The position numbers and the translations under genes were made by a program. A DNA stretch of 64,000 bases from an uncultured Piscirickettsiaceae bacterium (GTDB taxonomy: Bacteria; Pseudomonadota; Gammaproteobacteria; GCF-002020875), in assembly GCA_964344785.1 (NCBI GenBank), contig CAYFOR010000002.1, positions 506 to 64,505 on the forward strand, written 5' to 3'. A model generated the notes under the pieces. That model made no database searches and was not told where the DNA came from. It saw only the letters and a program-made list of their open reading frames with translations. Shown here piece by piece: positions 6,197 to 38,178 of the stretch (its first letter is position 1; every line of letters starts with the position of its first letter).

Positions 6197-6378
6197 AACG
6201 GTTCAGCTCACCTCTGAAATCTACCATCTCTGCGTTCGAAAATGGTCATGTATACCGATAACACTACGGGCAGTGCTCGTGGTCATCTTGGGATACATTT
6301 ACATTTTCTGCCTTGGGCTGGTGGAGTTTAGAGGCAATCTGAATCAGTTACAGGTACCGGTAAATAGTTACATCCGAT
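6197..6378 (+). repeat. MITE-like mosaic intergenic repeat, type A copy 1 (rpsO-pnp spacer)
   Basis: Left end aacggttcagctcacctctgaaatc; core ..gaaaatggtcat..cagtgctcg..; right ggtggagtttagagg plus tail module caatctgaatcagttacaggtaccggtaaatagttac; shares modules with copies near 15.5, 23.3, 29.1, 31.6 and 35.3 kb. Confidence 0.8.
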
Positions 6379-13187: not shown

Positions 13188-13289
13188 GCCATTGGGCTCG
13201 CCTAGTGCAAAGTGGCTGGGAGGAAAGGGGGCCGCCGGGTCATCATCCAGCCAGAACGGCCCCTTGATATCGAGTGTCTCTATTGTCGT

Positions 13290-14426
<1,137 letters not shown>

Positions 14427-14454
14427 TGATACGGTGTAAAGAATTGAGCGGAGA

Positions 14455-23280: not shown

Positions 23281-23421
23281 TAACTGTTCATTGGTACTCG
23301 TAACTGATTCAGATTGCCTCTGAAATTCGTCAGATCAAGGCGTGAAATGTGAGTTTATACGTATAAATGTCCATTTCACAACACAGAGCTGGTGGATTTC
23401 AGAGGTGAGCTGAACAGTTGC
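23281..23421 (-). repeat. MITE-like repeat, type A copy 3 (inverted orientation), overlapping the rluC 3' end
   Basis: Tail module (revcomp) at 23281-23325, core caaggcgtgaaa..tttcacaacacaga, end ggtggatttcagaggtgagctgaacagtt; the end encodes the last 14 codons and stop of rluC. Confidence 0.8.
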
Positions 23422-24374
23422 CGACATGATTCACTCTCCTGGAGTCGTTGAAGCACCTGCTGCAATGGTTCTGGGAGCGGGGCCTCCAGCCGTACCGTTG
23501 TCTCATCCTTGGGGTGGGGAAAGGCGATTTGGTGTGCATGCAGGAAGAGTCGCCTCAGGCCCATGTCGGCCATCTGCCGGTTGAACCGGTCATCACCATA
23601 TCGCTTGTCGCCAGCCAGTGGATGGTGAATATGGGCACCATGAACCCGGATCTGGTGCGTACGACCGGTGATGATTTCCACCTCGGCCAGGGTTGCATGC
23701 TCGCATGAGAGTCGTGGCATGAAGTGGCTCTCTGCCTCTTTTCCCTTTGTGCTCACCTGTACCAGACGCTCTCCAGACTTCAGTACACTTTTTTGCAGGG
23801 GGGCCGTCACATGCTTCCCTTTTCTCATCCTCCCCTTGAGCAGGGCGAGATATTGCTTCGTCACCCGCTGTTCACGGATCGACTGGTGCAGAGCGCGCAG
23901 TGCACCACGTCGCTTGGCGATCAACAGCAATCCGGAGGTTGCACGATCCAGCCGATGGACCAGTTCATAGCCGCCGGCCTCTTCACGAAGTGCCCGAAAA
24001 GACTCGATGACACCAAACTGGATGCCGCTGCCTCCATGAACGGCGATGCCGGAAGGTTTGTTGATCGCAATCATGTGCCGATCTTCATAAATAATCGCAG
24101 ACTCCAGCCACTCGACCGATTCGACTTTGGGGGGGGGCTTCTGTTCAGTCGTCCGAATGGGTGGGATTCTCACCTGATCTCCAGACTGCAGGCGATAGGT
24201 CTGTTTGACGCGTTTCTTGTTGACCCTTACCTCGCCTTTGCGCAGGATACGGTAGATGCGGCTTCTGGGAACCCCTTTCAAGGCAGTGATGAGAAAATTA
24301 TCAATCCTCTGCCCTTCCTGCTCGTTGGAGATCTCTACCAAACGTACCTGGTTGGAAGTGGGAAGGTGATCCAT
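23376..24374 (-). CDS. rluC: 23S rRNA pseudouridine synthase RluC
   Basis: 332 aa; S4 domain plus RluA-family catalytic motif HRLDRATSGLLLIAK; C-terminal QLFSSPLKSTSSVL* is read from the repeat end. Confidence 0.85.
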   Translation of the reverse strand: MDHLPTSNQVRLVEISNEQEGQRIDNFLITALKGVPRSRIYRILRKGEVRVNKKRVKQTYRLQSGDQVRIPPIRTTEQKPPPKVESVEWLESAIIYEDRHMIAINKPSGIAVHGGSGIQFGVIESFRALREEAGGYELVHRLDRATSGLLLIAKRRGALRALHQSIREQRVTKQYLALLKGRMRKGKHVTAPLQKSVLKSGERLVQVSTKGKEAESHFMPRLSCEHATLAEVEIITGRTHQIRVHGAHIHHPLAGDKRYGDDRFNRQMADMGLRRLFLHAHQIAFPHPKDETTVRLEAPLPEPLQQVLQRLQESESCRQLFSSPLKSTSSVL

Positions 24375-24477
24375 ATGGCAGTTACTGCAGGATTGGGTTG
24401 TTTGAGGAGAGGGGATCTATACCCCTGACGGTCATGATTCAGAAACGTCGATTGTACCAGTTAAACCGCCAGTGCTC

Positions 24478-27400
24478 TCACTCTTCCTTGTCGGCCAGGG
24501 CGGATACATATTCCTTGAACGCCATATCGTCTGTCAGGATGTGGTGTTCCCACCAGCTGATGAGGTGGTTGGTGATGGAGATAATCTGTTGATCTCCCAG
24601 CTGGTTTCGATAAAGATCGGATAACTTATCCCAATATTCTCTGTGTCCGGCCCTGTGGCGATCCAATTCAGGATAGTTTGCCTGTTCCAGCAGCGCCTCC
24701 TCCCTTTCAACATGAGCCATCATCATGTCGTGCAGGTCTGAGAGTGCCTTGAGTACACGCTCCCTGTCAGGTGCATGTTCTTCTCGGTTGCAGAATTGGA
24801 TCAAGAGATTGATGTGCTCAACAATCCGTTGATGGTCAAGGTCCAGCACCGGGTGACCTACGAAGTAGTGATCACTCCAGATGATCATTTTCATCGCATC
24901 GGTTTGGTGGTTGTCCGATGCAGCCTGGTCCTGGGGCAGGTGTTTTTTCAATGCATCAACCAATGCATTTTTGTCGATTGGCTTGGCCAGAAAGCCATTG
25001 CAACCGGCCTGCTCGAACTGCTCCCGGTGTTTCGCCATCACATTGGCAGTCAGTGCATAGATTGGCGTGTCAATCCCTCTTTTCCGTAGGATTCTGGTTG
25101 CCTCGATACCATCCATCACAGGCATCTGCATATCCATCAATATCATGTCAAATGGCTCATGTGTGGCTAATTCAACCGCCTCTTGCCCATTTTCTGCAGT
25201 GGTCACCGAAATTCCCTTTCCTTCAAGAATGCGGCGTTCCAGCAGCCTCAGGGCCGCTGTATCCTCTACGATCAGTACGTGACCCTTGAACATCTGTGTG
25301 TATGTGGTGGACTGCTCTTGCTGCTGTTGGTCCGTTACGATTCTGAAATCACTGCGTCGATACGGGATTGTCAGCGTAAAGGTGGAGCCGCTTCCCTTGT
25401 TGCTTTTGGCTGTGATGTTGCCCCCCATCATCTGGGCAAGATTGAATGAGATATAGAGCCCCAGTCCGCTACCACCAAATCTTCGGGAAATGGAGCCATC
25501 GGCCTGCTCAAACTTCTGGAATAGTCTTGACTGCTCCTCGGTGCTCATACCGATTCCGGTATCTTCAATATCAAACCGCAGGTACCCGTTTTCAACCATG
25601 GTGGTCAATTTGATGCCTCCCTGTTCGGTGAACTTGATCGCGTTGCCGATCAGGTTGATCAGTATTTGGCTGATTCGATTACTGTCACCGATTAACTCAT
25701 ACACTTCATGGTTTTGTTCAACAATCTCCAGCGTAAGACCGGCATCCTGTACCCGGATGGCCAACATCCCCTCGATATTCTCCAGCAGTCTGCTCAGGTT
25801 GAAGGGAATTTCGTCAATGGTATATTTGCCTGATTCGATCTTGGACATATCGAGAATGTCGTTCACAAGATTCAGCTGAGCGGTTCCGGCCGTCTCAATA
25901 TCGTCAACGATCTTCTTCAGATCGGGAGAGGAGAGCCTTTCGGAGAGATATTCCGCATTGCCGATGATTGAGGTCAGTGGTGTACGCAGCTCATGGCTCA
26001 TGGAGGCCATGAACTCATCGCGTGCATCCATCCGTTCCTGTTCAAGTCTCAGCCGCTCCTGTTGAAGCTGGATTCTTGAACTGATATCGACAACGGTGGC
26101 CAGGATGCCCTCTTCGTTTCCATAGGTGATCGGGGAGAGTCCGACTTCTACCGGGATCATCTCTCCCCGCTTTGTCAAACCGAATAGCTCTCGTCCACTA
26201 CCCATCGGGCGTTTTCGAGCCTCTTCCACATAGCGTTTTCGGGCACCGATGTGTTGCTCTCTCTGCGATTCTGAAATCAATACCTCTACCGGCTGTCCGA
26301 CCAGCTCTCCGCTATCGTAACCAAACAGTGATTCAGCGGCTGCATTGCAACGCACAATCGTGCCATATCGGTTGGTGACCACCATACCGCTGGGTGCAGC
26401 GTCAAAGGTCTGCAGAATTTCCCGGGTCATTTGTTGAATGGTTTTTGCCAGGATGTAGCCCTCCTGGTCGAATCGGTCCGCATTCTGATCGATATCAACT
26501 GTGGTATCCCCCTGTCGAATGGTCTCGGCGATATGGGTCAGTCTTTTCAGGGAAAAACCGATTCTGGATGCCATGAAATAGGCCACAATCAGGCCTGCAA
26601 ATGCAACAAAAATCAGCAGTTGGAGTAGTCTGCTACGTAGTGCCTCATAGGAGTGGTAGACCTCGTTCTGGTCCATCTTGACCAGCAGCCCCCATTTCTG
26701 TTCAGGGATCTGTGTCGTCACGGCGACCACGGGTACTTCGCGGTAATCTACGATATCCTCATGCCAGCCGGTCTCTCCAGCCAGCGCACGAATGATGGGT
26801 ACATCGGTACGGTCTGCAGCAATGGTACGGGAAAGTGCCCTGTTCTCATCAAATCGAAGTGGTGTAAGGAAACGGGCATCTCCGTTATCCAACTGTTCGG
26901 CCAGAATCGTCTCACCACTCTCTCCCAGGCCGTCATAGCTGGCAGTGATTTGGCGTAGCTCATTGAGATTGCTGTTGATATGCAGTGTGCCAACGCTCCT
27001 GCCGTTCAATAGAAGTGGTGTAATGGTATGAAGGTACAGTCGGCCTTCACTGCTCTTTTCGGTAATGGAGACATTCCCGGACAGATCGGAATCGAAAAGT
27101 GTCAATTCTGGTATTCCAACCGAATCGGGGTTGGTTGACATGATGGTGATCCCGTCTGCGTCAACAATCTTGATCTCATCGAAGTCCTCCAGTGATTGAA
27201 ATATGTCCTCAATCGTAAGGCAGATCTCCTTCCGGTATGATGAGTCGAGTGACCGGTTGTACTGCTCCAAAAGCTGCCGAAGCTGCGTATGGCTGGCGAT
27301 CAGTTTGGCGCGCTGCTGCATGCGTTCAAGAAAGGTAGATACCCGTTGTTGCTGGATGGATGCGACGGAAAGCAGCTGGTCACGGGCATCCTGTTTCAGT

Positions 27401-27546
27401 TTGTTCCTGAACTCCTGCAAGGCCAATGTGGTGATGGTTCCGGCCACAATCACTCCAAACAGTATCAGCCCCAAGGTGATTCGGCTCAGGATTGAGTATC
27501 GCTTGCGCGTTTTGGGCCTATCGTGATTTTTGAAAATCGATTTCAT
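24478..27546 (-). CDS. hybrid sensor histidine kinase with C-terminal hemerythrin domain
   Basis: 1022 aa: TM1, ~280-aa periplasmic domain, TM2, PAS, H-box SHELRTPL, HATPase (GGSGLGLYIS), REC, then ~135-aa hemerythrin-like His/Glu/Asp ligand pattern (HPVLDLDHQRIVEH, HVEREE, HRAGHREYWD, WWEHHILTDD). Confidence 0.85.
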   Translation of the reverse strand: MKSIFKNHDRPKTRKRYSILSRITLGLILFGVIVAGTITTLALQEFRNKLKQDARDQLLSVASIQQQRVSTFLERMQQRAKLIASHTQLRQLLEQYNRSLDSSYRKEICLTIEDIFQSLEDFDEIKIVDADGITIMSTNPDSVGIPELTLFDSDLSGNVSITEKSSEGRLYLHTITPLLLNGRSVGTLHINSNLNELRQITASYDGLGESGETILAEQLDNGDARFLTPLRFDENRALSRTIAADRTDVPIIRALAGETGWHEDIVDYREVPVVAVTTQIPEQKWGLLVKMDQNEVYHSYEALRSRLLQLLIFVAFAGLIVAYFMASRIGFSLKRLTHIAETIRQGDTTVDIDQNADRFDQEGYILAKTIQQMTREILQTFDAAPSGMVVTNRYGTIVRCNAAAESLFGYDSGELVGQPVEVLISESQREQHIGARKRYVEEARKRPMGSGRELFGLTKRGEMIPVEVGLSPITYGNEEGILATVVDISSRIQLQQERLRLEQERMDARDEFMASMSHELRTPLTSIIGNAEYLSERLSSPDLKKIVDDIETAGTAQLNLVNDILDMSKIESGKYTIDEIPFNLSRLLENIEGMLAIRVQDAGLTLEIVEQNHEVYELIGDSNRISQILINLIGNAIKFTEQGGIKLTTMVENGYLRFDIEDTGIGMSTEEQSRLFQKFEQADGSISRRFGGSGLGLYISFNLAQMMGGNITAKSNKGSGSTFTLTIPYRRSDFRIVTDQQQQEQSTTYTQMFKGHVLIVEDTAALRLLERRILEGKGISVTTAENGQEAVELATHEPFDMILMDMQMPVMDGIEATRILRKRGIDTPIYALTANVMAKHREQFEQAGCNGFLAKPIDKNALVDALKKHLPQDQAASDNHQTDAMKMIIWSDHYFVGHPVLDLDHQRIVEHINLLIQFCNREEHAPDRERVLKALSDLHDMMMAHVEREEALLEQANYPELDRHRAGHREYWDKLSDLYRNQLGDQQIISITNHLISWWEHHILTDDMAFKEYVSALADKEE

Positions 27547-27911
27547 CAGCAGTCAGCATATCAAGCCATTTCATCAAGATCCGTTCAGTTCTGAAAGGGC
27601 AGAATAGGGCAGCAATGTTATCGCTGTGGGTTGGTGTATATATAAACCGGGAGTCTAATTTGCATCTATTGGTAATACTGCTGCCATGGACAAATTCTTG
27701 GACCGGTTGCTTGGCGCACCTGTTTTTCAACAGGGGGGTTCTTGGCTTCAGTATCAAATTAACTTGATTTCAACAATGGTGTTGATTGGTATATTAATCG
27801 ATTGGTATCAAAAAAGGAGAGGTTGTTGGGTGGTGGGCATGCCGGAGTGGGATGAGAGGTTGATTTATATGACCAACTGTTTTACTATGTTATTGGGTAG
27901 GATTGTGACGC

Positions 27912-29054
27912 ATGATGAAACTCATGAATAGAAAATGGGCGTTAACCGCTTCTTTGTTGGTGATGATCGGTATCTTCGTATTGGGAGGTATCAGTGCCCG
28001 TCTGACGATAGCGCAGGAGGAGCCAGAGATGGGTGATCAATCCAGGGTTGAACGAGCCATTTTTGCCGGTGGGTGCTTCTGGTGTATGGAGCCACCATTC
28101 GAAAAACTTGATGGTGTAGTCGATGTAGTTTCCGGTTTCACAGGTGGTGACACGGTGGACCCAACCTACAAGCAGGTAGTGACCGGTACTACAGGCCATC
28201 TGGAGGCGGTCGAGGTGACCTATGACCCGGCCAGGATCGATTATGGAACGCTGGTGGATACTTTCTGGCGACAGATTGACCCAACGGATGATGGTGGTTC
28301 CTTTGTGGATCGGGGAAGCCACTATCGTAGTGCAATCTTCTATCTGAATGCGGAACAGCAGGCGGCTGCAGAGCAGTCCAAAAGCGAGTTGGGACAGTCC
28401 GGGATGTTTGAGCAGCCCATTGTGACCGCCATTCTTCCAGCCAAACCCTTTTATCGGGCGGAGGATTATCATCAGAACTTCTACAAAACCAACCCGTTAC
28501 ACTATAAACGTTATCGTGCAGGATCTGGCCGGGATCAGTTTATTCAGTCGACCTGGATCAGTATGAAATCTGACCAGACTGATACCCCGAAGAAATATGT
28601 AAAGCCATCGGATGATGAACTCAAACGGCGCTTGACGCCACTGCAGTTTGAAGTGACGCAGGAGGAGGGAACCGAGCGTGCCTTCAACAATATCTACTGG
28701 GATAACAAGGCGGATGGGATCTATGTTGATATCGTTTCAGGAGAGCCGCTCTTCAGTTCCACCGACAAGTACGATTCTGGTACCGGCTGGCCGAGCTTCA
28801 CCCGTCCAATCGTAAAGGATGTACTCACCGAGAAAGAGGATCGTCGCCTCTGGTTCTCGGTACGAACAGAGGTGCGCAGTAAATTTGCGGACTCCCATCT
28901 TGGGCATGTCTTCGATGACGGCCCTGCACCGACCGGGCTACGTTACTGTATCAACTCCGCATCACTGCGCTTCATACCCAAAGAGGATCTGAAAAGTGAA
29001 GGGTATGAAGAGTTCATCAAGTTATTTGATCGCAACGACCCGGATCACCCCTGA
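27912..29054 (+). CDS. msrAB: secreted/periplasmic peptide methionine sulfoxide reductase MsrA-MsrB fusion
   Basis: Signal/anchor peptide; MsrA catalytic GCFWC; MsrB GTGWPSF and RYCINSASL; the stop lies inside the repeat end cacccctgaaa. Confidence 0.9.
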
Positions 29055-29183
29055 AACTCACCATCTCTGCGTTCGAAAATGGTCATGTATACGTATATAT
29101 GACCATTTTCTGCCTTGATCTGGTGAGTTTCAGAGGCAATCCGACCCGTTACGACAGTGTACTAAAACTACATTTGATTCAGA
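29045..29183 (+). repeat. MITE-like repeat, type A copy 4, overlapping the msrAB stop
   Basis: cacccctgaaactcaccatctctgcg; perfect hairpin cgaaaatggtcatgtatacgtatatatgaccattttctg; ggtgagtttcagaggcaat. Confidence 0.8.
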
Positions 29184-29270
29184 ATAACCAAGTCAGTACC
29201 CTCACCACTCTGAGGTAACGGGGAAATCCGTTGCCATCTCTCAACGTGACTGCTTGAGCCCTGGGAGGCT

Positions 29271-29825
29271 TTGCTGATGAGTGGTGATAACCATATGGAA
29301 GTGGTTGATTTGTTGGCTCGTACTGCACTGAAAGAGCGTGCTGCCTTCGAAAGGCTCTATCGGCTGACCTCGATGAAACTGTTTCCCCTGTTGCTGCGTA
29401 TATTAAAGCGAGAGGATCTTGCTCAGGAGTGTCTTCAGGAAGCCTACGTACAGATCTGGAATCGCGCAGAAGAGTATCGAAACGATCTGGCTGCACCGAT
29501 TACCTGGATGACGACCATTGCCCGTTATCGTGCATTGGACCTGCTTCGAAGGCGTAAACATGAAGTGCCACTGGAAGACGAGATGCTCTTGGATGGTGAT
29601 GAAGAGCGGGACGGATTATTGCAGCAACTGGAGGCAACAGAGGATGGAGTGGCGTTGGCCGAGTGTATGAAGCAGTTGAGTCAGCAGCAGCGGAACTGCA
29701 TCTACCTTGCGTACTTTGAGGGGAGTACTCACCCGGAAATCGCCTCCAGAATGGATGTGCCTGTTGGATCCGTCAAGACCTGGATTCGTCGAGGAATGAG
29801 CAGCTTGAAGGGGTGTCTGTCATGA
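29271..29825 (+). CDS. ECF-type RNA polymerase sigma-70 factor
   Basis: 184 aa; sigma-70 region 2 (..YVQIWNRAEEY..PITWMTTIARYRALDLLRRR) and region 4 HTH (HPEIASRMDVPVGSVKTWIRRG). Confidence 0.85.
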   Translation: MLMSGDNHMEVVDLLARTALKERAAFERLYRLTSMKLFPLLLRILKREDLAQECLQEAYVQIWNRAEEYRNDLAAPITWMTTIARYRALDLLRRRKHEVPLEDEMLLDGDEERDGLLQQLEATEDGVALAECMKQLSQQQRNCIYLAYFEGSTHPEIASRMDVPVGSVKTWIRRGMSSLKGCLS

Positions 29826-30496
29826 GTCAAGAGATTGAGGAGAGAGCAGCAGGGTATGTATTGGGTACGCTTGCGGGGGAGGAACGTGAATCATTCGAAA
29901 TGCAGATGCGCAAGGATCGCACACTTGCAGAGATGGTGGCCCAGTGGGAGCAGCGACTGCAGCCTCTGGCGGATACGGTTGGTGAGGTGCAGCCGCCTCA
30001 ACAGGTTTGGCGTAACATCGAACAACGCCTGGGCTTTGAAGATTCGGTTCGGCAACACTCATTCTGGGACAATCTGCGGCTCTGGCAGGGCATCAGTGCG
30101 GTGGCAACCGCCTTTGGAATCTGGTTCGCCTTTCTGGTCATCAATATGGCGCCGCAAGGCCCCGAGTTGCTCTATCTGGTTCAGGATCAGGGAAAGACAG
30201 AGTGGATTGTAAGAGCGAGCTATCAGCAGCCCCGGGTAGAGATCGAGGCTGTTGAACCACCGCATCTGCCACAAGGGCAGGTGTGCCAGCTCTGGCTGAC
30301 CCTGCCGGATGGGTCGGTCAGGCTGGTTGCCGAACTGCCCCACAGTGGAGAGGTGTCCGTTCCACTTTTCGGAGACATCAATCGATTGCTCTCACCAGGC
30401 ACCATGCTCTCCGTTACCGTGGAGAGCGCCGAGGAGAAAATGGATCGTATCCCCAGTGATACGATGGTTTCTCAAGGCCGCTGGATCAGAATCTAA
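29813..30496 (+). CDS. anti-sigma factor (RskA/ChrR-like), single TM
   Basis: Overlaps the sigma gene end; N-terminal AAGYVLGTL..ERESFE..WE.RL.PL anti-sigma motif; TM ISAVATAFGIWFAFLVINM; extracytoplasmic C-domain. Confidence 0.7.
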   Translation: MSVMSQEIEERAAGYVLGTLAGEERESFEMQMRKDRTLAEMVAQWEQRLQPLADTVGEVQPPQQVWRNIEQRLGFEDSVRQHSFWDNLRLWQGISAVATAFGIWFAFLVINMAPQGPELLYLVQDQGKTEWIVRASYQQPRVEIEAVEPPHLPQGQVCQLWLTLPDGSVRLVAELPHSGEVSVPLFGDINRLLSPGTMLSVTVESAEEKMDRIPSDTMVSQGRWIRI

Positions 30497-30505
30497 TCGT
30501 TTCTA

Positions 30506-31444
30506 GTGGCTGAGATACAGGCCGGTATGTTGAACAACCAGTCCTGCAACGAAGGTCTGCTGCAGGATATGCTGTTGCTGGACCATCTGGGAGACGTGGG
30601 GATGAGTGAAATGATTTCACTGATGCGTCTTCATGTCCAGGAGGTGACACGGTTCAGTTTGCTGGTTGCCTACAGGCTGCCCCTCTCTGCAGAGCAGCAA
30701 CGTGTGTTTGTGCGGGACTGTTCCGGTTATGAGATTGACCCGGAACCATTTTTACAGACGGTAGAAGGGGGGACTCGACTCTCAATTGCAGGTATACAGT
30801 TGCTGAAAATCTGTGCCAAGGTGCATGATATCGGCAAGCCATTCTTCCGACAGATCTACAGCCAGGCCCGAAGATTGACACAGCAGGAGTTCAATCAACA
30901 GAAACTGCATGCCAATCTGTCGCGTTTGATCGTGAAGGGGTGGCTCAATCAGCCCGGTCTCCACTTTTCCAACCCTGATCTGGTACGGATGGTGGCTGAT
31001 GTCGCTGCACAACATCAGGAGAAGTTTGATGGTACCGGCTACCCGGATGGCATCGCAGGAGAGGAGATCTCGCTGTTGGGGCGGCTGCTGGCGATTACCG
31101 ATGCAATCAGTGCGATTGTCAATCCACGCCCTTATGAGGCAGCAACGCCACTACAGGAGGCACTGGTTCGACTGGAGTCGGACAGTGGCAGACATTTTGA
31201 CCCGCTGCTGCTTGAACAGGCCATCACTGTGCTGCGCCAGGAGGTGACGGATGCTCCTCGTTTCAGTGGTGAGTGGGATGATATGTCTGAACACTCACCG
31301 GACTATCTTCAGTTTGTTGCCAATATCGATTACGCCGAGGTGGTTTCAAGCCGTGGCGAGGTTGGCCGTGGTGATCGCCAGACGCTGCAGCAGTTGCAGC
31401 AGTTGACACAGGAGGTTCTGGAGCGACCCATAAGAAAAAATTGA
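30506..31444 (+). CDS. HD-GYP-type domain protein (possibly degenerate)
   Basis: HD motif KVHDIGKPF and QHQEKFDGTGYPDG (HHExxDGxGYP with the first His replaced by Gln); ..ITDAISAIVNPRPY. Confidence 0.65.
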   Translation: MAEIQAGMLNNQSCNEGLLQDMLLLDHLGDVGMSEMISLMRLHVQEVTRFSLLVAYRLPLSAEQQRVFVRDCSGYEIDPEPFLQTVEGGTRLSIAGIQLLKICAKVHDIGKPFFRQIYSQARRLTQQEFNQQKLHANLSRLIVKGWLNQPGLHFSNPDLVRMVADVAAQHQEKFDGTGYPDGIAGEEISLLGRLLAITDAISAIVNPRPYEAATPLQEALVRLESDSGRHFDPLLLEQAITVLRQEVTDAPRFSGEWDDMSEHSPDYLQFVANIDYAEVVSSRGEVGRGDRQTLQQLQQLTQEVLERPIRKN

Positions 31445-31535
31445 AAAAAATCAAAAAAACTGAATCCATTGGTACGAACACCACGTATATCATACCGACT
31501 GGTGTTCACACTGTTGAACGGGTCGAAAACCGATA

Positions 31536-31730
31536 AGGAGCCTGGTGACAATTAAGTTGGACAGATTGCGCAGGATTTCGTTTCGTATTCAAGGCGTGAA
31601 AATGGGCGCATAACACTACGAGCAGTGCTCGAGGTCACCTTAGGGTATTCATTATATGTAACCGTTTTCACAACACAGAAGACGAAACGAAAGACAAGCA
31701 AGGTGTTCGAGTTATTTTTGCCAGGTTCCT
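31536..31730. repeat. MITE-like mosaic repeat, type B copy 2, directly upstream of the precursor gene
   Basis: aggagcctggtgacaa../..ttatttttgccaggttcct ends; core gacagattgcgcagg..caaggcgtgaaa..cactacgagcagtgctcg..tttcacaacacagaagacga. Confidence 0.8.
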
Positions 31731-31760
31731 TGGTCAATAAAATTCAATGGAGTAATAAAC

Positions 31761-32099
31761 ATGGACAAGAAGATCTCAACGCTGGCATTGGCAACTTCCG
31801 TTGCATTGGGAATGGGTGCATCGAGTACTACTTTTGCAGCAGATAACCCATTCGCCATCTCCGAGTTGCCGGCTGGTTATCAGTTGGCCAACAACATGGA
31901 AGGCAAATGTGGTGAAGGTAAGTGTGGTGGCTCCAAGCCCAAGGCCAGTGAAGAAGGCAAGTGCGGTGAAGGCAAGTGTGGCGGTTCCAAGCCCAAGGCG
32001 AGCGAAGGCAAATGTGGTGAAGGTAAGTGTGGTGGCGCCAAACCCAAGGCCAGTGAAGGCAAGTGCGGTGAAGGAAAATGTGGTGGTGGAAAGGTATAA
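31761..32099 (+). CDS. secreted Cys-rich repeat precursor peptide (bufferin-like, EGKCG-repeat class)
   Basis: 112 aa: Sec signal peptide (..GASSTTFA|ADNP), then 3.5 tandem units EGKCGEGKCGG[S/A]KPKAS (8 Cys); stop is 3 nt before the DUF692 gene. Confidence 0.8.
   Translation: MDKKISTLALATSVALGMGASSTTFAADNPFAISELPAGYQLANNMEGKCGEGKCGGSKPKASEEGKCGEGKCGGSKPKASEGKCGEGKCGGAKPKASEGKCGEGKCGGGKV
31899..32096 (+). repeat. 48-51-nt coding tandem repeat (x3.5) inside the precursor gene
   Basis: gaaggcaa(a/g)tg(t/c)ggtgaagg(t/c/a)aa(g/a)tgtgg(t/c)gg(c/t)(t/g)ccaa(g/a)cccaaggc(c/g)ag(t/c)ga units with mostly synonymous differences. Confidence 0.85.
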
Positions 32100-32102
32100 G
32101 CG

Positions 32103-32960
32103 ATGAAGCAACCCAACCCACCTATTTCCGGTGTTGGCCTGGGGCTCCGGCGTGATCTTCTGGACACGCTGGAGGTGCAGATCCCCGGTTCCATCGAGTT
32201 TATGGAGGCTGCTCCTGAAAACTGGATGGGGCTTGGGGGCAGGCTGCGCGACTCACTGGAACGGGTTGTGGAGCAGGTCCCGTTGATCTGTCATGGACTT
32301 TCACTCAATCTTGGAGGTTACAGTCCACTCGATCAACAATTTCTAAAAGAGCTCCGTCAGTTCCTGGATCTCTATCAGATTCCGGTCTACAGCGAGCACC
32401 TCAGCTACTGTGGAGACCATGGACATCTTTATGACCTGATGCCGATCCCGTTTACAGAAGAGGCGGTGCGCTATGTCGTCGAACGTATTCGGCAGGTTGA
32501 AGATGCCTTGGAGCGTCCACTCGTATTGGAGAATATCTCCTACTACGCCGCACCGGGACAACAGATGAGTGAACTGGAATTTATCCAGGCGGTGCTGGAA
32601 GAGTCCGGGTGTGAGATGTTGCTGGATGTAAATAATATTTATGTCAACAGTGTCAATCACCGTTACGACCCGGCACAGTTTCTAAGTGAGCTCAGTGACC
32701 GGAAGATAAGTTATATCCATGTGGCCGGGCACTACCATGAGGCTGAAGATCTGATCGTGGATACTCATGGGGCTGCCGTGGAAGATCCGGTGTGGGCGTT
32801 GCTGCAGCAGGCCTACGGACAGTTTGGTGCAGTGCCTACGCTGTTGGAACGTGATTTCAATATTCCGGCCCTGGAAGAGTTGCTGGCAGAGATGGCACAG
32901 ATTCGCCAATACCAGCAGGCAGTGAACAATAGTGCAGAGGAGTTTGCGGATGTTGCATGA
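32103..32960 (+). CDS. DUF692-family protein (MbnB/BufB-like peptide-modifying enzyme)
   Basis: 285 aa; GVGLGLRRDLL..EFMEAAPENWMG..LICHGLSLNLGG..YSEHLSYCG..LVLENISYY matches the DUF692 signature. Confidence 0.85.
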   Translation: MKQPNPPISGVGLGLRRDLLDTLEVQIPGSIEFMEAAPENWMGLGGRLRDSLERVVEQVPLICHGLSLNLGGYSPLDQQFLKELRQFLDLYQIPVYSEHLSYCGDHGHLYDLMPIPFTEEAVRYVVERIRQVEDALERPLVLENISYYAAPGQQMSELEFIQAVLEESGCEMLLDVNNIYVNSVNHRYDPAQFLSELSDRKISYIHVAGHYHEAEDLIVDTHGAAVEDPVWALLQQAYGQFGAVPTLLERDFNIPALEELLAEMAQIRQYQQAVNNSAEEFADVA

Positions 32961-33738
32961 TCAAACCGCTCCATCTTATCGCTTTCAGCAACTGCAGCAG
33001 CAGTTTGCCGCTCATATTCGTTCCCCCGAACGGCAACCGATACCAGATGGGATCGAGGCCAGAAGGATGGCGATCTATGAGGAGCTGTTCTTCAATAATG
33101 TAGAGGGAATACTCGCCAGTGGATTTCCGGTGATTCGAACGCTCTATAGTGAAGAGAAGTGGCATCAGTTGGTACGGGACTTTTTCCATCTGCACCCCTG
33201 CAAGAGCCCCTATTTTTCACAAATCCCGTATGAATTTGTCCAATACCTGATGAATGAACGGGATCAGAGTTCGGATGATCCGCCATTTCTGCTGGAGTTG
33301 GCCCACTACGAATGGGTTGAGCTGGAGCTGAGTATCGATCCAGCCTCTCCGCAGTGGGATGAGTACGGCATGGTGGATGAGACTCTGCACCATATCGCGG
33401 TCCTCTCTCCGTTGGTCAGGGTATTGAGTTACCACTATCCGGTACAGATGATATCTGCCGAGAATGCACCAGTGGAGGCGCCACCGCAGCCAACCTATCT
33501 GTTGCTCTATCGGGACCGCAATCATGAGATCCACTTTATGGAGTCGAATCCGTTGGTCAACCGTCTCGTTGAATGGGTTGGTGAAGGGCGGGGTGCGGTG
33601 CGGGTGTTGCTGATCCAGTTGGCGGAGGAGTTTGGGCTCCCTGCAGATGAGGGCTGGTTGATGCATGGCAAGCAGCTACTGGATGAACTGGCCGTGCGCG
33701 GAGTCATTCTGGGCTATCAGACAAGCGGAGAGGAGTGA
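32950..33738 (+). CDS. DUF2063-family protein (MbnC/BufC-like partner)
   Basis: Overlaps the DUF692 end by 11 nt; N-terminal ..FQQLQQQFAAHIRSPE.. DUF2063-type domain; alternative start 32932. Confidence 0.7.
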   Translation: MLHDQTAPSYRFQQLQQQFAAHIRSPERQPIPDGIEARRMAIYEELFFNNVEGILASGFPVIRTLYSEEKWHQLVRDFFHLHPCKSPYFSQIPYEFVQYLMNERDQSSDDPPFLLELAHYEWVELELSIDPASPQWDEYGMVDETLHHIAVLSPLVRVLSYHYPVQMISAENAPVEAPPQPTYLLLYRDRNHEIHFMESNPLVNRLVEWVGEGRGAVRVLLIQLAEEFGLPADEGWLMHGKQLLDELAVRGVILGYQTSGEE

Positions 33739-34334
33739 TGATCCGGTTATTGATACAATTTCAGAAATGGATGGATCTGGGCCGAAATATCGATTTTCTG
33801 GCGCCACTGGCCTTGCGGCTCTATCTGGTACCGGTATTCCTGACTGCGGGCATGAACAAGGTCAACGGCTTTGAAAATGTCGTGGAGTGGTTCGGTAATA
33901 GTGAGTGGGGATTGGGACTTCCCCTTCCCTGGCTGATGGCGCTGTTGGCGACTGCAGCGGAGGTGATTGGTTCGCTGATGCTGCTGTTTGGATTTGGCGT
34001 TCGCTGGGCTACGATTCCCCTGATGGTGACAATGATCGTTGCGATCGTGACGGTCCATCTTGAGCATGGTTGGCAGGCTGTTGTCGATGGTAATAGCCCG
34101 TTCCCTCCGGCAGATTTGGCAGAAGCCCAGGAGCGACTACAGGCCGCTCGCTCCATTCTGCAGGAACATGGACACTATGACTGGCTGACGGCCAGTGGCA
34201 ATTTTGTAATTTCAAACAATGGAGTGGAGTGGGCAGTGACCTATCTTGTCATGCTGCTTGCGCTTTTCATCAGTGGAGGGGGGCGTTATCTGAGCGCGGA
34301 TTTCTGGATCAGAAGAAGATATTTTCCAGAATAA
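33735..34334 (+). CDS. DoxX-family membrane protein
   Basis: ATGA overlap with the DUF2063 stop; 199 aa, 3-4 TM segments, DoxX-like LALRLYLVPVFLTAGMNK. Confidence 0.75.
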   Translation: MMIRLLIQFQKWMDLGRNIDFLAPLALRLYLVPVFLTAGMNKVNGFENVVEWFGNSEWGLGLPLPWLMALLATAAEVIGSLMLLFGFGVRWATIPLMVTMIVAIVTVHLEHGWQAVVDGNSPFPPADLAEAQERLQAARSILQEHGHYDWLTASGNFVISNNGVEWAVTYLVMLLALFISGGGRYLSADFWIRRRYFPE

Positions 34335-34577
34335 TCAATTCTTTAGTGAACTAGAGCGGCCCAACTAACATTCAGTGCAGGTGTTCAATCCGGGCCGCTC
34401 CGTTCGCTTATTATTATCTTTACCGTTACCCGGATAGACAATACGCATAATTACGTATATTTGCCGGGTTTTTATTTTTATTGTTTGTATACAATAAGTT
34501 ATTTGTTTTGGTGCCCTTTTCTTACAGCGGCAGTTGATCTGCAAATGGTTATCTCTTGTCAGGTATAATCCAGTTCC

Positions 34578-34964
34578 ATGCAACTAGTCGCAATCGCCGC
34601 AGGCGGTGCCATGGGTGCCGTTGTACGATATCTTGTATCCAATGGAGTCCACCAGTGGTTGGGGCGTGGTTTCCCGTGGGGAACCCTGGTAGTCAATGTA
34701 ATGGGCTCGTTGGTGATGGGACTCCTGTTTGTGTTGCTGACGGAGCGTTTGGCGCTTGACCCCTTCTGGCGGGCATTGACGCTTGTCGGTTTTCTCAGTG
34801 CTTTCACTACCTTTTCAACGTTTTCGATCGAGACCTTGAACCTGATGGAGAGTGGTGAGTGGCTGCTGGCGGTGGTGAACGTGTTGAGTAGTGTCATGCT
34901 CTGTCTGTTGGCAGCCTGGCTGGGAATGGTGGTTGGTCGGGAAAGCCTGGGGATTGCACCATGA
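34578..34964 (+). CDS. crcB: fluoride ion channel CrcB/Fluc
   Basis: 128 aa, 4 TM; GAMGAVVRY..FPWGTL.VN..G.FTTFSTFS signature. Confidence 0.9.
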   Translation: MQLVAIAAGGAMGAVVRYLVSNGVHQWLGRGFPWGTLVVNVMGSLVMGLLFVLLTERLALDPFWRALTLVGFLSAFTTFSTFSIETLNLMESGEWLLAVVNVLSSVMLCLLAAWLGMVVGRESLGIAP

Positions 34965-35272
34965 GAAAAGAGGTGGTGATGATGGCGCGTCTCTACCTCT
35001 CAGAGGAGCATGCCCAGCTGAAATCGCTGCTGCAACTGCTACACGACCAGGAACAGGTGCGTGGCGTTACGGTTTTCCGTGGTATTGCCGGTTATGGCGA
35101 TAATGGAGAGGTTCATGGAACAGGGCTGGTCGACCTTTCGTTCAATCTGCCGCTGGTCATTGAATTCTTTGATTCACCGGAAAAGGTGGAGCGGGTATTG
35201 AACGATTTGGCGGAGAGAATGGATTCTGCTCATATGGTCTACTGGACCGCTGAGCAGATGGTTAAGGATTGA
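34961..35272 (+). CDS. DUF190-family protein (crcB-associated)
   Basis: ATGA overlap with the crcB stop; 103 aa ..ARLYLSE..VRGVTVFRGIAGYG.. typical DUF190; its TGA abuts a repeat copy. Confidence 0.7.
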   Translation: MRKEVVMMARLYLSEEHAQLKSLLQLLHDQEQVRGVTVFRGIAGYGDNGEVHGTGLVDLSFNLPLVIEFFDSPEKVERVLNDLAERMDSAHMVYWTAEQMVKD

Positions 35273-35409
35273 AACTGTTCAGTTCACCCCTGAAATCCGC
35301 CATCTCTGCGTTGTGAAATGGTCATTTATACGTATAAACTCACTCACGCCTTGATCTGACGAATTTGAAGGGCAATTTGAATCAGTTACTGGTTCTGGTG
35401 AGTAATTAC
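35273..35409 (+). repeat. MITE-like repeat, type A copy 5 (upstream of serS)
   Basis: aactgttcagttcacccctgaaatc..ttgtgaaatggtcat..cgtataaa..gaatttgaagggcaatttgaatcagttactggttctggtgagtaattac. Confidence 0.8.
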
Positions 35410-35439
35410 TTGGTAAACATGTGGATGGAGTACATGTAA

Positions 35440-36747
<1,308 letters not shown>

Positions 36748-36750
36748 TCA

Positions 36751-38178
36751 ATGGATTATTTACCGATTTTCATGGATGTGCGTGGTCGGAGCTGTCTGAT
36801 TGTCGGCGGCGGTGAGGTAGCAGCCCGCAAGGTGGAGATGCTGCTTCGGGCAGGCGCGGAGGTGGAGGTGGTCTCCCCATCGTTGGGGAAGACACTGAGC
36901 GATTATCATCAAAATCACCAGGTGCGGTGGATTGAGGCGGCTTTCGGACCGGAACATCTTCAACAGCCTGTGCTGGTCTATGCGGCAACCGACCAGCAGG
37001 AGATCAACCAGCAGGTATCTGAACTGGCAAAGGAGAAGAATATTCCGGTCAATGTGGTGGATACCCCGGCGCTTTGCAACTTCATTACCCCTTCCATTAT
37101 TGATCGATCACCGGTTGTGGCAGCAGTCTCAACCGGTGGTGCATCCCCTGTACTGGCACGCCTGATCCGTTCAAGGCTGGAGTCGATGATACCGGCAGCG
37201 TATGGGCGCTTTGCCACAATGGCAGCAAAATTCCGCCAGCAGGTGCAACAGAAGATCCCCGCCAGCCATCGCCGACTCTTTTGGGAAAAGGCCTTTCAGG
37301 GACCCATCGCCGAGATGATCTTCTCGGGTCGCAACCGGGAGGCTGAACATGCAATGGAAGAGATGGTGGAGCACTGCTGTCGCAGTGATGGTGGAGAACC
37401 ACTCAACCAGGGAGAGGTCTATCTGGTTGGTGGGGGACCGGGCGATCCGGATCTGCTGACCTTTCGTGCGCTGCGGTTGATGCAGCAGGCCGATGTGGTG
37501 GTCTATGATCGCCTGATCTCTCCCGCGGTACTTGATCTGACACGTCGGGATGCAGAGCGGATGTACGTTGGAAAGGAGCGGGATAACCACTCCGTGCCTC
37601 AGGATCAGATCAATCAGCTACTGGTCGACCTGGCAAAGCAGGGCAAACGGGTGGTGCGGCTGAAAGGGGGGGACCCCTTTATCTTCGGACGCGGTGGTGA
37701 AGAGATCGAACTGCTGGCCGAACATCAGATTCCGTTTCAGGTGGTTCCCGGCATCACGGCCGCTTCCGGTATCTCATCGTATGCCGGCATTCCACTGACT
37801 CACCGTGACCATGCGCAGTCGGTTACCTTCGCCACCGGACACCTGAAGGATGGTACCTCCAACCTCAATTGGCAGGCACTGGCGCAGCCGGGGCAGACGG
37901 TGGTTTTCTATATGGGGCTGAAGGGGATCGAGACCATTGCCGATCAGCTCATCGCCCACGGAATGGACCCGGATACACCGGCGGCACTGGTGCAAAAGGG
38001 GACAACACCGGATCAGGAGGAGTATATCGGCAGCCTGCAAACCCTCCCGCAAATTGTAAAAACCTCCAAAATCAAACCGCCGACACTGATCATTATCGGT
38101 TCGGTGGTGACCCTGCATGACAAGCTTGACTGGTTCCAGCCAGATGAGCAGCGGGGTAATGAGCCGCGGGTATTCTGA
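36751..38178 (+). CDS. cysG: siroheme synthase (uroporphyrinogen-III methyltransferase / precorrin-2 dehydrogenase / ferrochelatase)
   Basis: 475 aa; N-terminal Rossmann [12 protein letters not shown]; C-terminal SUMT domain [28 protein letters not shown]. Confidence 0.9.

Follow-up and report, generated by a model that had tools for sequence, protein, structure and literature searches.

The locus described herein is a four-gene operon, hvfABCX, at positions 31761–34334 of a 64,000-nt stretch of DNA (hereafter the window) from an uncultured Piscirickettsiaceae bacterium (contig CAYFOR010000002.1). Among the closest described systems is the hvfXABC locus of nontypeable Haemophilus influenzae (NTHi), which produces oxazolin and for which we drew on three sources (PMC11252979; bioRxiv 10.64898/2026.06.05.730506; bioRxiv 10.64898/2026.07.17.739211; together the NTHi oxazolin literature). 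The NTHi precursor HvfA (NTHI1441), characterised in 2024, is a 95-aa protein with three AEGKCGEGKCG motifs that is exported by Sec and cleaved by signal peptidase I. HvfB together with HvfC modifies its six cysteines, each with a loss of 4 Da, giving rise to a 302 nm chromophore, and the resulting oxazolin binds Cu(I); the published model assigns one Cu(I) to every two modified residues (PMC11252979). The modification was reassigned from oxazolone/thioamide to 5-thiooxazole in 2025–26, both by the original authors and independently (bioRxiv 10.1101/2025.11.18.689057), and in 2026 the active HvfB cofactor was reported to be a mixed-valent diiron cluster that is formed only with HvfC (NTHi oxazolin literature).

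Two further systems, fontiphorin from Fontimonas thermophila (FonABC) and gonophorin from Neisseria gonorrhoeae (NgoABC), were characterised in 2025, when the name captophorins was proposed; fontiphorin binds up to four Cu, and no 5-mer repeat is commoner than EGKCG in the precursors of captophorins (bioRxiv 10.1101/2025.11.18.689057). The published biochemistry of EGKCG precursors comprises a loss of 4 Da per Cys, a chromophore at 302–305 nm, alkylatable 5-thiooxazoles identified by nuclear magnetic resonance, and Cu(I) binding. A genomic survey of the group, there named Buf_EGKCG/oxazolin, recorded approximately 2,000 members forming the third-largest cluster of precursors with a signal peptide, and NCBI holds curated models for HvfA, HvfB, HvfC and HvfX. 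An earlier reading of the present DNA, made without database searches (the sequence-only reading), had taken the EGKCG precursors for a minor class with no biochemically characterised member. The size of the cluster and the prevalence of the 5-mer speak against the first statement, and the second is incorrect because of the 2024–2026 literature and the curated models: the biochemistry of oxazolin, fontiphorin and gonophorin is known in each case, with Cys converted to Cu(I)-binding 5-thiooxazoles.

Gene content and class of the operon

We consider it highly probable that the genes at 31761–34334 form an hvfABCX operon, a class that is also referred to as Buf_EGKCG/oxazolin or as the Lys-Cys group of 'captophorins'. 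The operon comprises four open reading frames (ORFs) whose products are 112, 285, 262/268 and 198/199 aa in length, and its features are as follows.

31761–32099, + strand: hvfA, precursor of a ribosomally synthesised and post-translationally modified peptide (RiPP) of the HvfA / Buf_EGKCG / oxazolin family (NF050137 match)
31761–31838, + strand: predicted Sec signal peptide, HvfA residues 1–26, with cleavage after TFA (n/h/c layout, homologue alignment)
31839–31880, + strand: conserved post-signal motif ADNPFAISELPAGY, HvfA residues 27–40 (homologue alignment)
31899–32087, + strand: HvfA core of four EGKCGEGKCGG blocks (8 Cys) and three (S/A)KPKAS linkers (Tandem Repeats Finder, motif positions)
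32103–32960, + strand: hvfB, multi-iron oxidase of the MNIO (DUF692) family (PF05114, NF003818)
32950–33738 (alternative GTG start at 32932), + strand: hvfC, DUF2063 plus NGO1945_C protein, PME type 1, containing a RiPP recognition element (RRE) (PF09836, PF22106, NF050145)
33738–34334 (alternative GTG start at 33735), + strand: hvfX, DoxX-family membrane protein (PF07681, NF050144)
34345–34408, + strand: likely operon terminator, a stem-loop 3' of hvfX (folding energy versus shuffles)

The four genes are translationally coupled. A gap of 3 nt separates hvfA from hvfB, while hvfB and hvfC overlap by 11 nt (ATG at 32950) or 29 nt (GTG at 32932), and hvfC and hvfX by 1 nt (ATG at 33738) or 4 nt (GTG at 33735). 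Each gene has its own Shine-Dalgarno-like sequence 5' of the start codon (GGAG, GGAAAGG, GAGGAG and GGAGAGGAG, respectively). The tightly coupled four-gene operon of the sequence-only reading was confirmed in its ORFs, its coordinates, and its gap and overlaps. Downstream of hvfX, the stem-loop at 34345–34408 folds with a dG of −29.7 kcal/mol (z = −5.5), a stability that was reached by none of 200 shuffles, and a U-rich stretch follows it.

The identity of the operon follows from comparison with NCBIfam models, as HvfB, HvfC and HvfX score above their cut-offs and the precursor scores above the HvfA-family cut-off. HvfB matched PF05114 (MbnB_TglH_ChrH; E = 1.4e-104) and the equivalog model NF003818 (423.7 versus a cut-off of 360), and fell below the cut-offs of the BufB model NF050167 (273 versus 310) and the MbnB model TIGR04159 (43 versus 325). 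HvfC matched PF09836 (DUF2063; E = 7.9e-29), PF22106 (NGO1945_C; E = 6.6e-25) and NF050145 (294.9 versus a cut-off of 142), as well as NgoC (PDB 3DEE; E = 2.8e-7), and HvfX matched PF07681 (DoxX; E = 3.6e-21) and NF050144 (232.5 versus a cut-off of 80). All three partner families named before any search, DUF692, DUF2063 and DoxX, were therefore recovered when hidden Markov models (HMMs) from both Pfam and NCBIfam were applied. The precursor, which has no Pfam match, reached 90.3 bits against the HvfA-family domain model NF050137 (cut-off 19.5, E = 4e-26) and gave no DUF2282 match, placing it in the EGKCG class as had been proposed. The matches of precursor (NF050137) and enzyme (PF05114) are far beyond chance. 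Judged on these sequence comparisons, hvfABCX is the sister class of the bufferins and is remote from methanobactin.

The catalytic residues of HvfB are intact. Residues H64, H99, E143, D175, N178, H206, D220, H222 and E249 are present, each being at least 97% conserved across 81 sequences, and we take these nine to be iron ligands on the pattern of MbnB, with which their spacing agrees. HvfB also aligns to the MNIO structure PDB 3BWW (E = 4.5e-75), which is 72% identical to NTHi HvfB, and through this alignment N178, D220 and H222 correspond to N175, D242 and H244 of the NTHi enzyme, mutants of which are inactive (NTHi oxazolin literature). HvfX has four hydrophobic transmembrane segments by hydropathy, and its conserved residues include E75, R89, H107, W112, Y147, D188 and W190, with H107 and W112 situated at the start of a loop of approximately 50 residues.

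With NTHi hvfXABC the locus shares the four protein families, a Sec signal (predicted here), the (A)EGKCGEGKCG double motifs that are the modification sites in NTHi, the MNIO iron-ligand set, the DUF2063/RRE partner and the DoxX protein. It differs in having four double motifs with eight modifiable Cys versus three with six in NTHi, in lacking a disulfide pair of the Cys38/Cys43 type, and in its Lys/Pro-rich SKPKAS linkers, and the departures of the precursor from NTHi HvfA are limited to these three. The NTHi gene numbering puts doxX (NTHI1440) beside the precursor gene (NTHI1441), whereas hvfX in the window follows hvfC, and the host of the window is an uncultured environmental gammaproteobacterium rather than a pathogen. 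Fontiphorin and gonophorin resemble what is predicted here in the conversion of EGKCG to 5-thiooxazoles, in the MNIO–PME1 pair and in multivalent Cu binding, with HvfC being homologous to NgoC of the gonophorin system; both differ from the window in repeat number and spacing. The definition of Buf_EGKCG/oxazolin used in the genomic survey, namely a period of 17–18 residues with EGKCG occurring twice in each repeat, the core gene set RiPP–MNIO–DUF2063–DoxX and a signal peptide (here a predicted one), fits the locus, and within the 31–506 residues spanned by that group the precursor lies at the short, modal end, without an EF-hand fusion.

The precursor and its proposed maturation

HvfA has the canonical architecture of its family. 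The EGKCGEGKCGG blocks of the core start at residues 47, 65, 82 and 99 (period 17–18 aa), with three (S/A)KPKAS(E) linkers between them, and each of the eight Cys falls within a KCG motif. At the DNA level, Tandem Repeats Finder identified a 51-nt unit present in 3.6 copies with an 83% match (31899–32086). The repeats and Cys are therefore as described in the sequence-only reading, which had also called the 112-aa protein secreted. For this latter point the predicted signal peptide was assessed by its layout and by alignment: the N-terminus is basic and then hydrophobic, with MDKK, ISTLALATSVALGMGA and SSTTFA as n, h and c regions followed by AD, and 39 aligned homologues share this layout. 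The site between TFA and AD is A-x-A-like, and cleavage there would release a mature peptide of 86 residues that is rich in Gly, Lys and Glu.

Following the signal peptide, the pattern xPFxxxxLxxG[YF] was found in 111 of the 120 best HvfA homologues, and P30, F31 and G39 are invariant in a 40-sequence alignment. We assign the ADNPFAISELPAGY segment as the probable docking region for the RRE of HvfC because NTHi HvfA is reported to require its N-terminal region in order to be modified optimally. Homologues align to HvfA from end to end with 53–70% identity.

To judge how typical this copy is, we considered both precursor and enzyme. The precursor search returned 6,493 homologues at E ≤ 1e-3; four KCGxxKCG double motifs occur in 84 and eight Cys in 69 of the 120 best, the window having both, and its 17-residue period is among the commonest in the homologues (16–18 residues). 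At least 569 HvfB loci were found among species-representative genomes. The nearest HvfB (68% identical) is from an uncultured gammaproteobacterium, followed by those of Marinobacterium, Thiohalophilus, Amphritea and Neptuniibacter. Among 80 fetched loci, the commonest gene orders were A-B-C-X (34 loci) and A-B-C (28 loci), the hvfX gene being a common though not constant part of such clusters. An identical precursor is present on metagenome contigs of the European Nucleotide Archive project PRJEB17505, and no second precursor or second MNIO was found in the 64-kb window. The hvfABCX operon of the window is a canonical member, in its modal form, of a very large and characterised family.

A variation on the precursor architecture was seen among the homologues, several of which (P0025–P0029, P0044, P0069–P0071, P0079, P0091 and P0102) have a pair of EF-hands placed between their EGKCG double motifs and not only at the C-terminus. 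Buf_EGKCG and EF-hand chimaeras, to which these are related, have been published.

By analogy with the characterised systems, we propose that HvfA is synthesised with its Sec signal peptide and that HvfC would dock the precursor in the cytoplasm, probably via the NPF...L..GY segment, and would activate HvfB, an iron- and O2-dependent MNIO with a diiron(II/III) site. HvfB would then take four electrons per Cys and convert all eight EGKCG Cys to 5-thiooxazoles, for which the predicted mass change is −32 Da. The modified peptide would be exported by Sec and its signal peptide cut by signal peptidase, whereupon the periplasmic or secreted product may bind Cu(I) via thiooxazole N/S donors, with approximately one Cu per EGKCGEGKCG double motif by analogy and hence approximately four Cu(I) per peptide. 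Such a product could act as a copper-sequestering buffer under envelope stress, with HvfX (DoxX) as a conserved membrane partner. The conversion of Cys to thiooxazole and the multivalent periplasmic copper binder anticipated from the sequence would agree with the published EGKCG homologues.

Several points weigh against this interpretation of the locus. The chemistry proposed here, along with export, metal binding, copper stoichiometry and physiological role, is carried over by homology from characterised relatives, and the role of the class is itself unsettled in the literature between copper sequestration, copper acquisition and oxidative stress. HvfA scored 84.3 against NF050188, the NTHi HvfA equivalog, which is under the cut-off of 95; as NF050137 was passed and NF050188 missed, we regard it as a family member and not as a strict HvfA equivalog. 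Nor does it have the two N-terminal Cys by which recognition is aided in NTHi. AlphaFold2 modelling of HvfA from the 40-sequence alignment gave no confident fold (mean pLDDT 44.5, below 40 in the repeat region), which would be compatible with a flexible unmodified precursor, yet is not informative, and neither supports nor refutes the beta-helix published for longer members. Finally, no copper-homeostasis genes were found within the 64-kb window.

Alternative readings and the msrAB–sigma module

The alternative that survives best keeps the same enzymology and places it in a regulon for envelope oxidative stress (hypochlorous acid, HOCl, or methionine oxidation) that is controlled by the adjacent extracytoplasmic function (ECF) sigma and anti-sigma factors and shared with msrAB, rather than being copper-specific. 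We hold this to be possible, if doubtful. The features that bear on it lie directly 5' of hvfA.

27912–29054, + strand: msrAB, membrane-anchored (Pfam/NCBIfam)
29271–29825, + strand: ECF sigma factor (Pfam/NCBIfam)
29813–30496, + strand: RskA-type anti-sigma factor with a single transmembrane segment (Pfam/NCBIfam)
30506–31444, + strand: HD-domain protein, HD/HD_5 (HD-GYP-like) (Pfam/NCBIfam)
31445–31760, + strand: hvfA leader, 316 nt (folding, repeat comparison)
31462–31489, + strand: candidate ECF-type promoter GAATC-N16-ACGTATA (motif match)

This module is notable beside hvf because of two experimentally defined regulons, in Neisseria and Haemophilus. The DoxX–precursor–MNIO–DUF2063 genes of Neisseria share a transcript with those for sigmaE and its anti-sigma factor, msrAB being the other member of the regulon, and in H. 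influenzae exposure to HOCl induces all four hvf genes in an RpoE2-dependent manner, together with msrAB. In the window, msrAB, the sigma and anti-sigma genes, the HD gene and hvfABCX are contiguous on one strand, and a + strand scan of the 316-nt leader between HD and hvfA detected neither a terminator-like site nor a sigma-70-like promoter; hvfA may be co-transcribed with the sigma operon. Upstream of hvfA lies the only exact match to the motif GAATC-N16-ACGTATA in the 64-kb window. Among 83 loci from outside this genome there is one further exact match, situated 42 nt before msrAB in a syntenic relative (L083, 4997–5024). In a related locus, L003, an msr gene is found directly 3' of hvfC.

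Set against this, the sigma/anti-sigma/HD module is kept without hvf in L083 and is absent beside hvf in the 80 other loci, and on these comparisons it would appear to travel with msrAB and not with hvf. The GAATC-N16-ACGTATA motif, which was found post hoc, is upstream of neither the msrAB of the window nor either sigma gene, leaving it a weak lead for an ECF-type promoter that links hvfA to msrAB. In addition, the anti-sigma factor of the window is of the membrane-spanning RskA type without a ZAS motif, whereas those of Neisseria and Haemophilus are small and cytoplasmic; the Neisseria biosynthetic genes form one operon with the ECF sigma and cytoplasmic ZAS anti-sigma genes, and the module of the window lies upstream and is separable. 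Membership in an oxidative-stress regulon does not exclude copper binding. We regard the msrAB–sigma–anti-sigma–HD module (27912–31444) as a possible regulator of hvf that lies outside the hvf cassette.

A promoter shared by msrAB, the sigma gene and hvfA was also sought and was rejected, as the three upstream regions have no bipartite motif in common. A looser variant of the GAATC-N16-ACGTATA motif, GAAATCC-N14-ACGTGAC, is located upstream of the sigma gene of the window at 29223, and TGTTGA-N13-CGAT is common to two of the three upstream regions, where approximately 0.1 such matches are expected by chance.

As a separate observation, an msr-like gene directly follows hvfC in L003 (7687–8157), and in the Nitrosomonas loci L034 and L045 msr lies a few kb from hvf, which hints that Msr and hvf are functionally connected in certain lineages. 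The HD protein (30506–31444) has no receiver domain and begins 9 nt after the anti-sigma gene, a position that is kept in L083 and points to an operon of sigma factor, anti-sigma factor and phosphodiesterase-like protein. Divergent from msrAB on the − strand, 24478–27546 encodes a 1,022-aa hybrid sensor kinase (dCache, PAS, HisKA, HATPase and receiver domains) with a C-terminal hemerythrin, which may be a sensor of O2, iron or redox state beside the stress module. This hybrid histidine kinase between rluC and msrAB is absent from that position in L083, which has instead a small stand-alone hemerythrin-like ORF at L083:1707–2081.

A methanobactin-like chalkophore, with oxazolone/thioamide pairs and secreted for copper acquisition, is very improbable. 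Methanobactin (MbnABC) is alike in that an MNIO-superfamily enzyme makes a Cu(I) ligand from the Cys of a ribosomal peptide, and oxazolin was itself first assigned oxazolone/thioamide in 2024, when a chalkophore role was raised (PMC11252979), wording that the NCBIfam names retain. However, the oxazolin modification has since been reassigned to 5-thiooxazole by two groups, and in the characterised relatives induction follows an excess of metal or stress rather than a lack of copper. The MbnB model score of HvfB given above, its DUF2063/PME1 partner in place of MbnC, and the predicted Sec signal of the precursor likewise led us to reject membership, methanobactin having a leader/core precursor without a Sec signal, an MNIO from a distant clade, oxazolone/thioamide groups and a role in copper acquisition. 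No TonB-dependent receptor, MbnT-like or MbnP/H-like genes were found nearby.

A bufferin in the strict sense, Buf1 (DUF2282) or Buf2 (6/12Cys) as known from Caulobacter vibrioides and others, can be dismissed. The MNIOs are close, separating into different sequence-similarity clusters only when the threshold is set high, and the two systems have related MNIO, PME1 and DoxX proteins; Sec export, thiooxazole chemistry and a copper-stress role would be further features in common. The bufferin-like set of precursor, MNIO, DUF2063 and DoxX genes in the sequence-only reading stands. The precursor, however, has Lys-Cys repeats and no DUF2282, and HvfB falls short of the BufB model while passing the HvfB model.

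Leader, repeats and the hvf cassette

We return to the assignment of the operon to hvfABCX and to the DNA in which it is set. The window is gammaproteobacterial core chromosome, with nusA-infB-truB-rpsO-pnp, surE-nlpD-rpoS, ftsK-lolA, serS-cysG and htpG. The 316-nt hvfA leader folds as one long hairpin (dG = −108 kcal/mol, z = −7.3). We rejected the idea of a dedicated regulatory RNA or riboswitch and read the hairpin as a dispersed palindromic repeat, since a second copy at 14268–14428 is 72% identical over 197 nt to 31536–31732 (E = 9e-32) and since the apex module recurs at 6258–6295. This repeat, family A, is an imperfect long hairpin of approximately 163–197 nt. Its copy at 31536–31732 takes up most of the hvfA leader, and the other hairpin copy (14265–14428, z = −7.9) is located between ORF 13212–14330 and the gene for alanine dehydrogenase. 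Rfam has no entry for the repeat, no U-tract comes after it, and it looks like a miniature inverted-repeat transposable element (MITE) or a repetitive extragenic palindromic (REP) sequence. An Rfam scan of the whole window returned one tRNA only, with no riboswitch or known RNA in the leader or ahead of crcB. The ORF whose 3' end runs into the second copy (13212–14330) encodes 372 aa with 13 Cys and no Pfam match; it could represent a genuine orphan gene or an ORF-calling artefact.

A second group of hairpins, family B (approximately 90–130 nt), was found at 6215–6345, 29052–29144, 35291–35376 and, in reverse orientation, 23306–23405, in each case directly 3' of genes: in the rpsO–pnp gap, just past msrAB, between DUF190 and serS, and by the 3' end of rluC, respectively. 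A 38-nt apex module within the rpsO–pnp hairpin is 87% identical to the leader apex at 31610–31647, and this shared apex suggests nested or modular repeats.

Comparison with L083 (metagenome contig Ga0209250_1000139, 3969–12209), which is syntenic to positions 23376–38178 of the window, bears on the history of the operon. L083 has the order rluC-msrAB-sigma-anti-sigma-HD-crcB-DUF190-serS-cysG, with 51–87% amino acid identity to the window; it has no hvf genes, and its HD and crcB genes are spaced by 155 nt. The 5' arm of the likely hvfX terminator, TGAACTAG(A/G)GCGGCC, sits after the HD gene in L083. From this synteny and the hairpin arm, the leader plus hvfABCX, approximately 2.9 kb, is an indel between the HD stop codon and the terminator. 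This conclusion comes from a single comparison, as a scan of metagenomes with the anti-sigma protein gave only L083. No compositional sign of recent foreign origin was detected, the GC content being 0.50–0.54 across cassette and flanks, and no convincing direct repeats or target-site duplications flank the cassette. Directly 3' of the hvf terminator is a pair of genes encoding the fluoride channel CrcB and a DUF190 protein (34578–35272); no fluoride riboswitch was found in the 240 nt upstream of crcB at the Rfam gathering threshold.

Taken together with the regulatory setting, we tentatively suggest a scenario that we nonetheless think unlikely, in which a self-contained hvfABCX cassette entered, in this lineage, an operon of ECF sigma factor, RskA-type anti-sigma factor and HD protein that is linked to msrAB, landing after its final gene and ahead of its terminator. 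Transcription would now reach the cassette by read-through, or start at an ECF-type promoter, GAATC-N16-ACGTATA, shared with msrAB. This would constitute a regulon resembling those of Neisseria and Haemophilus that arose independently and convergently, with the palindromic mobile repeat in the leader modulating the transcript.

As a system, this copy adds little, given curated HMMs, thousands of members and three characterised representatives. It is, on the other hand, a clean and minimal environmental example of its class, with eight Cys, no N-terminal disulfide and four intact coupled genes, and lends itself to comparisons of repeat number and linker composition and to study of the role of HvfX. 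The presence of the hvf operon here and its absence from L083 indicate that it behaves as a portable cassette. Were the insertion scenario true, a copper-binding thiooxazole peptide would be under the control of a periplasm-sensing oxidative-stress sigma factor. The place of the operon beside msrAB and an ECF sigma gene recalls the regulons of Neisseria and Haemophilus and bears on the question of whether the class serves in copper defence, in oxidative-stress defence, or in both.

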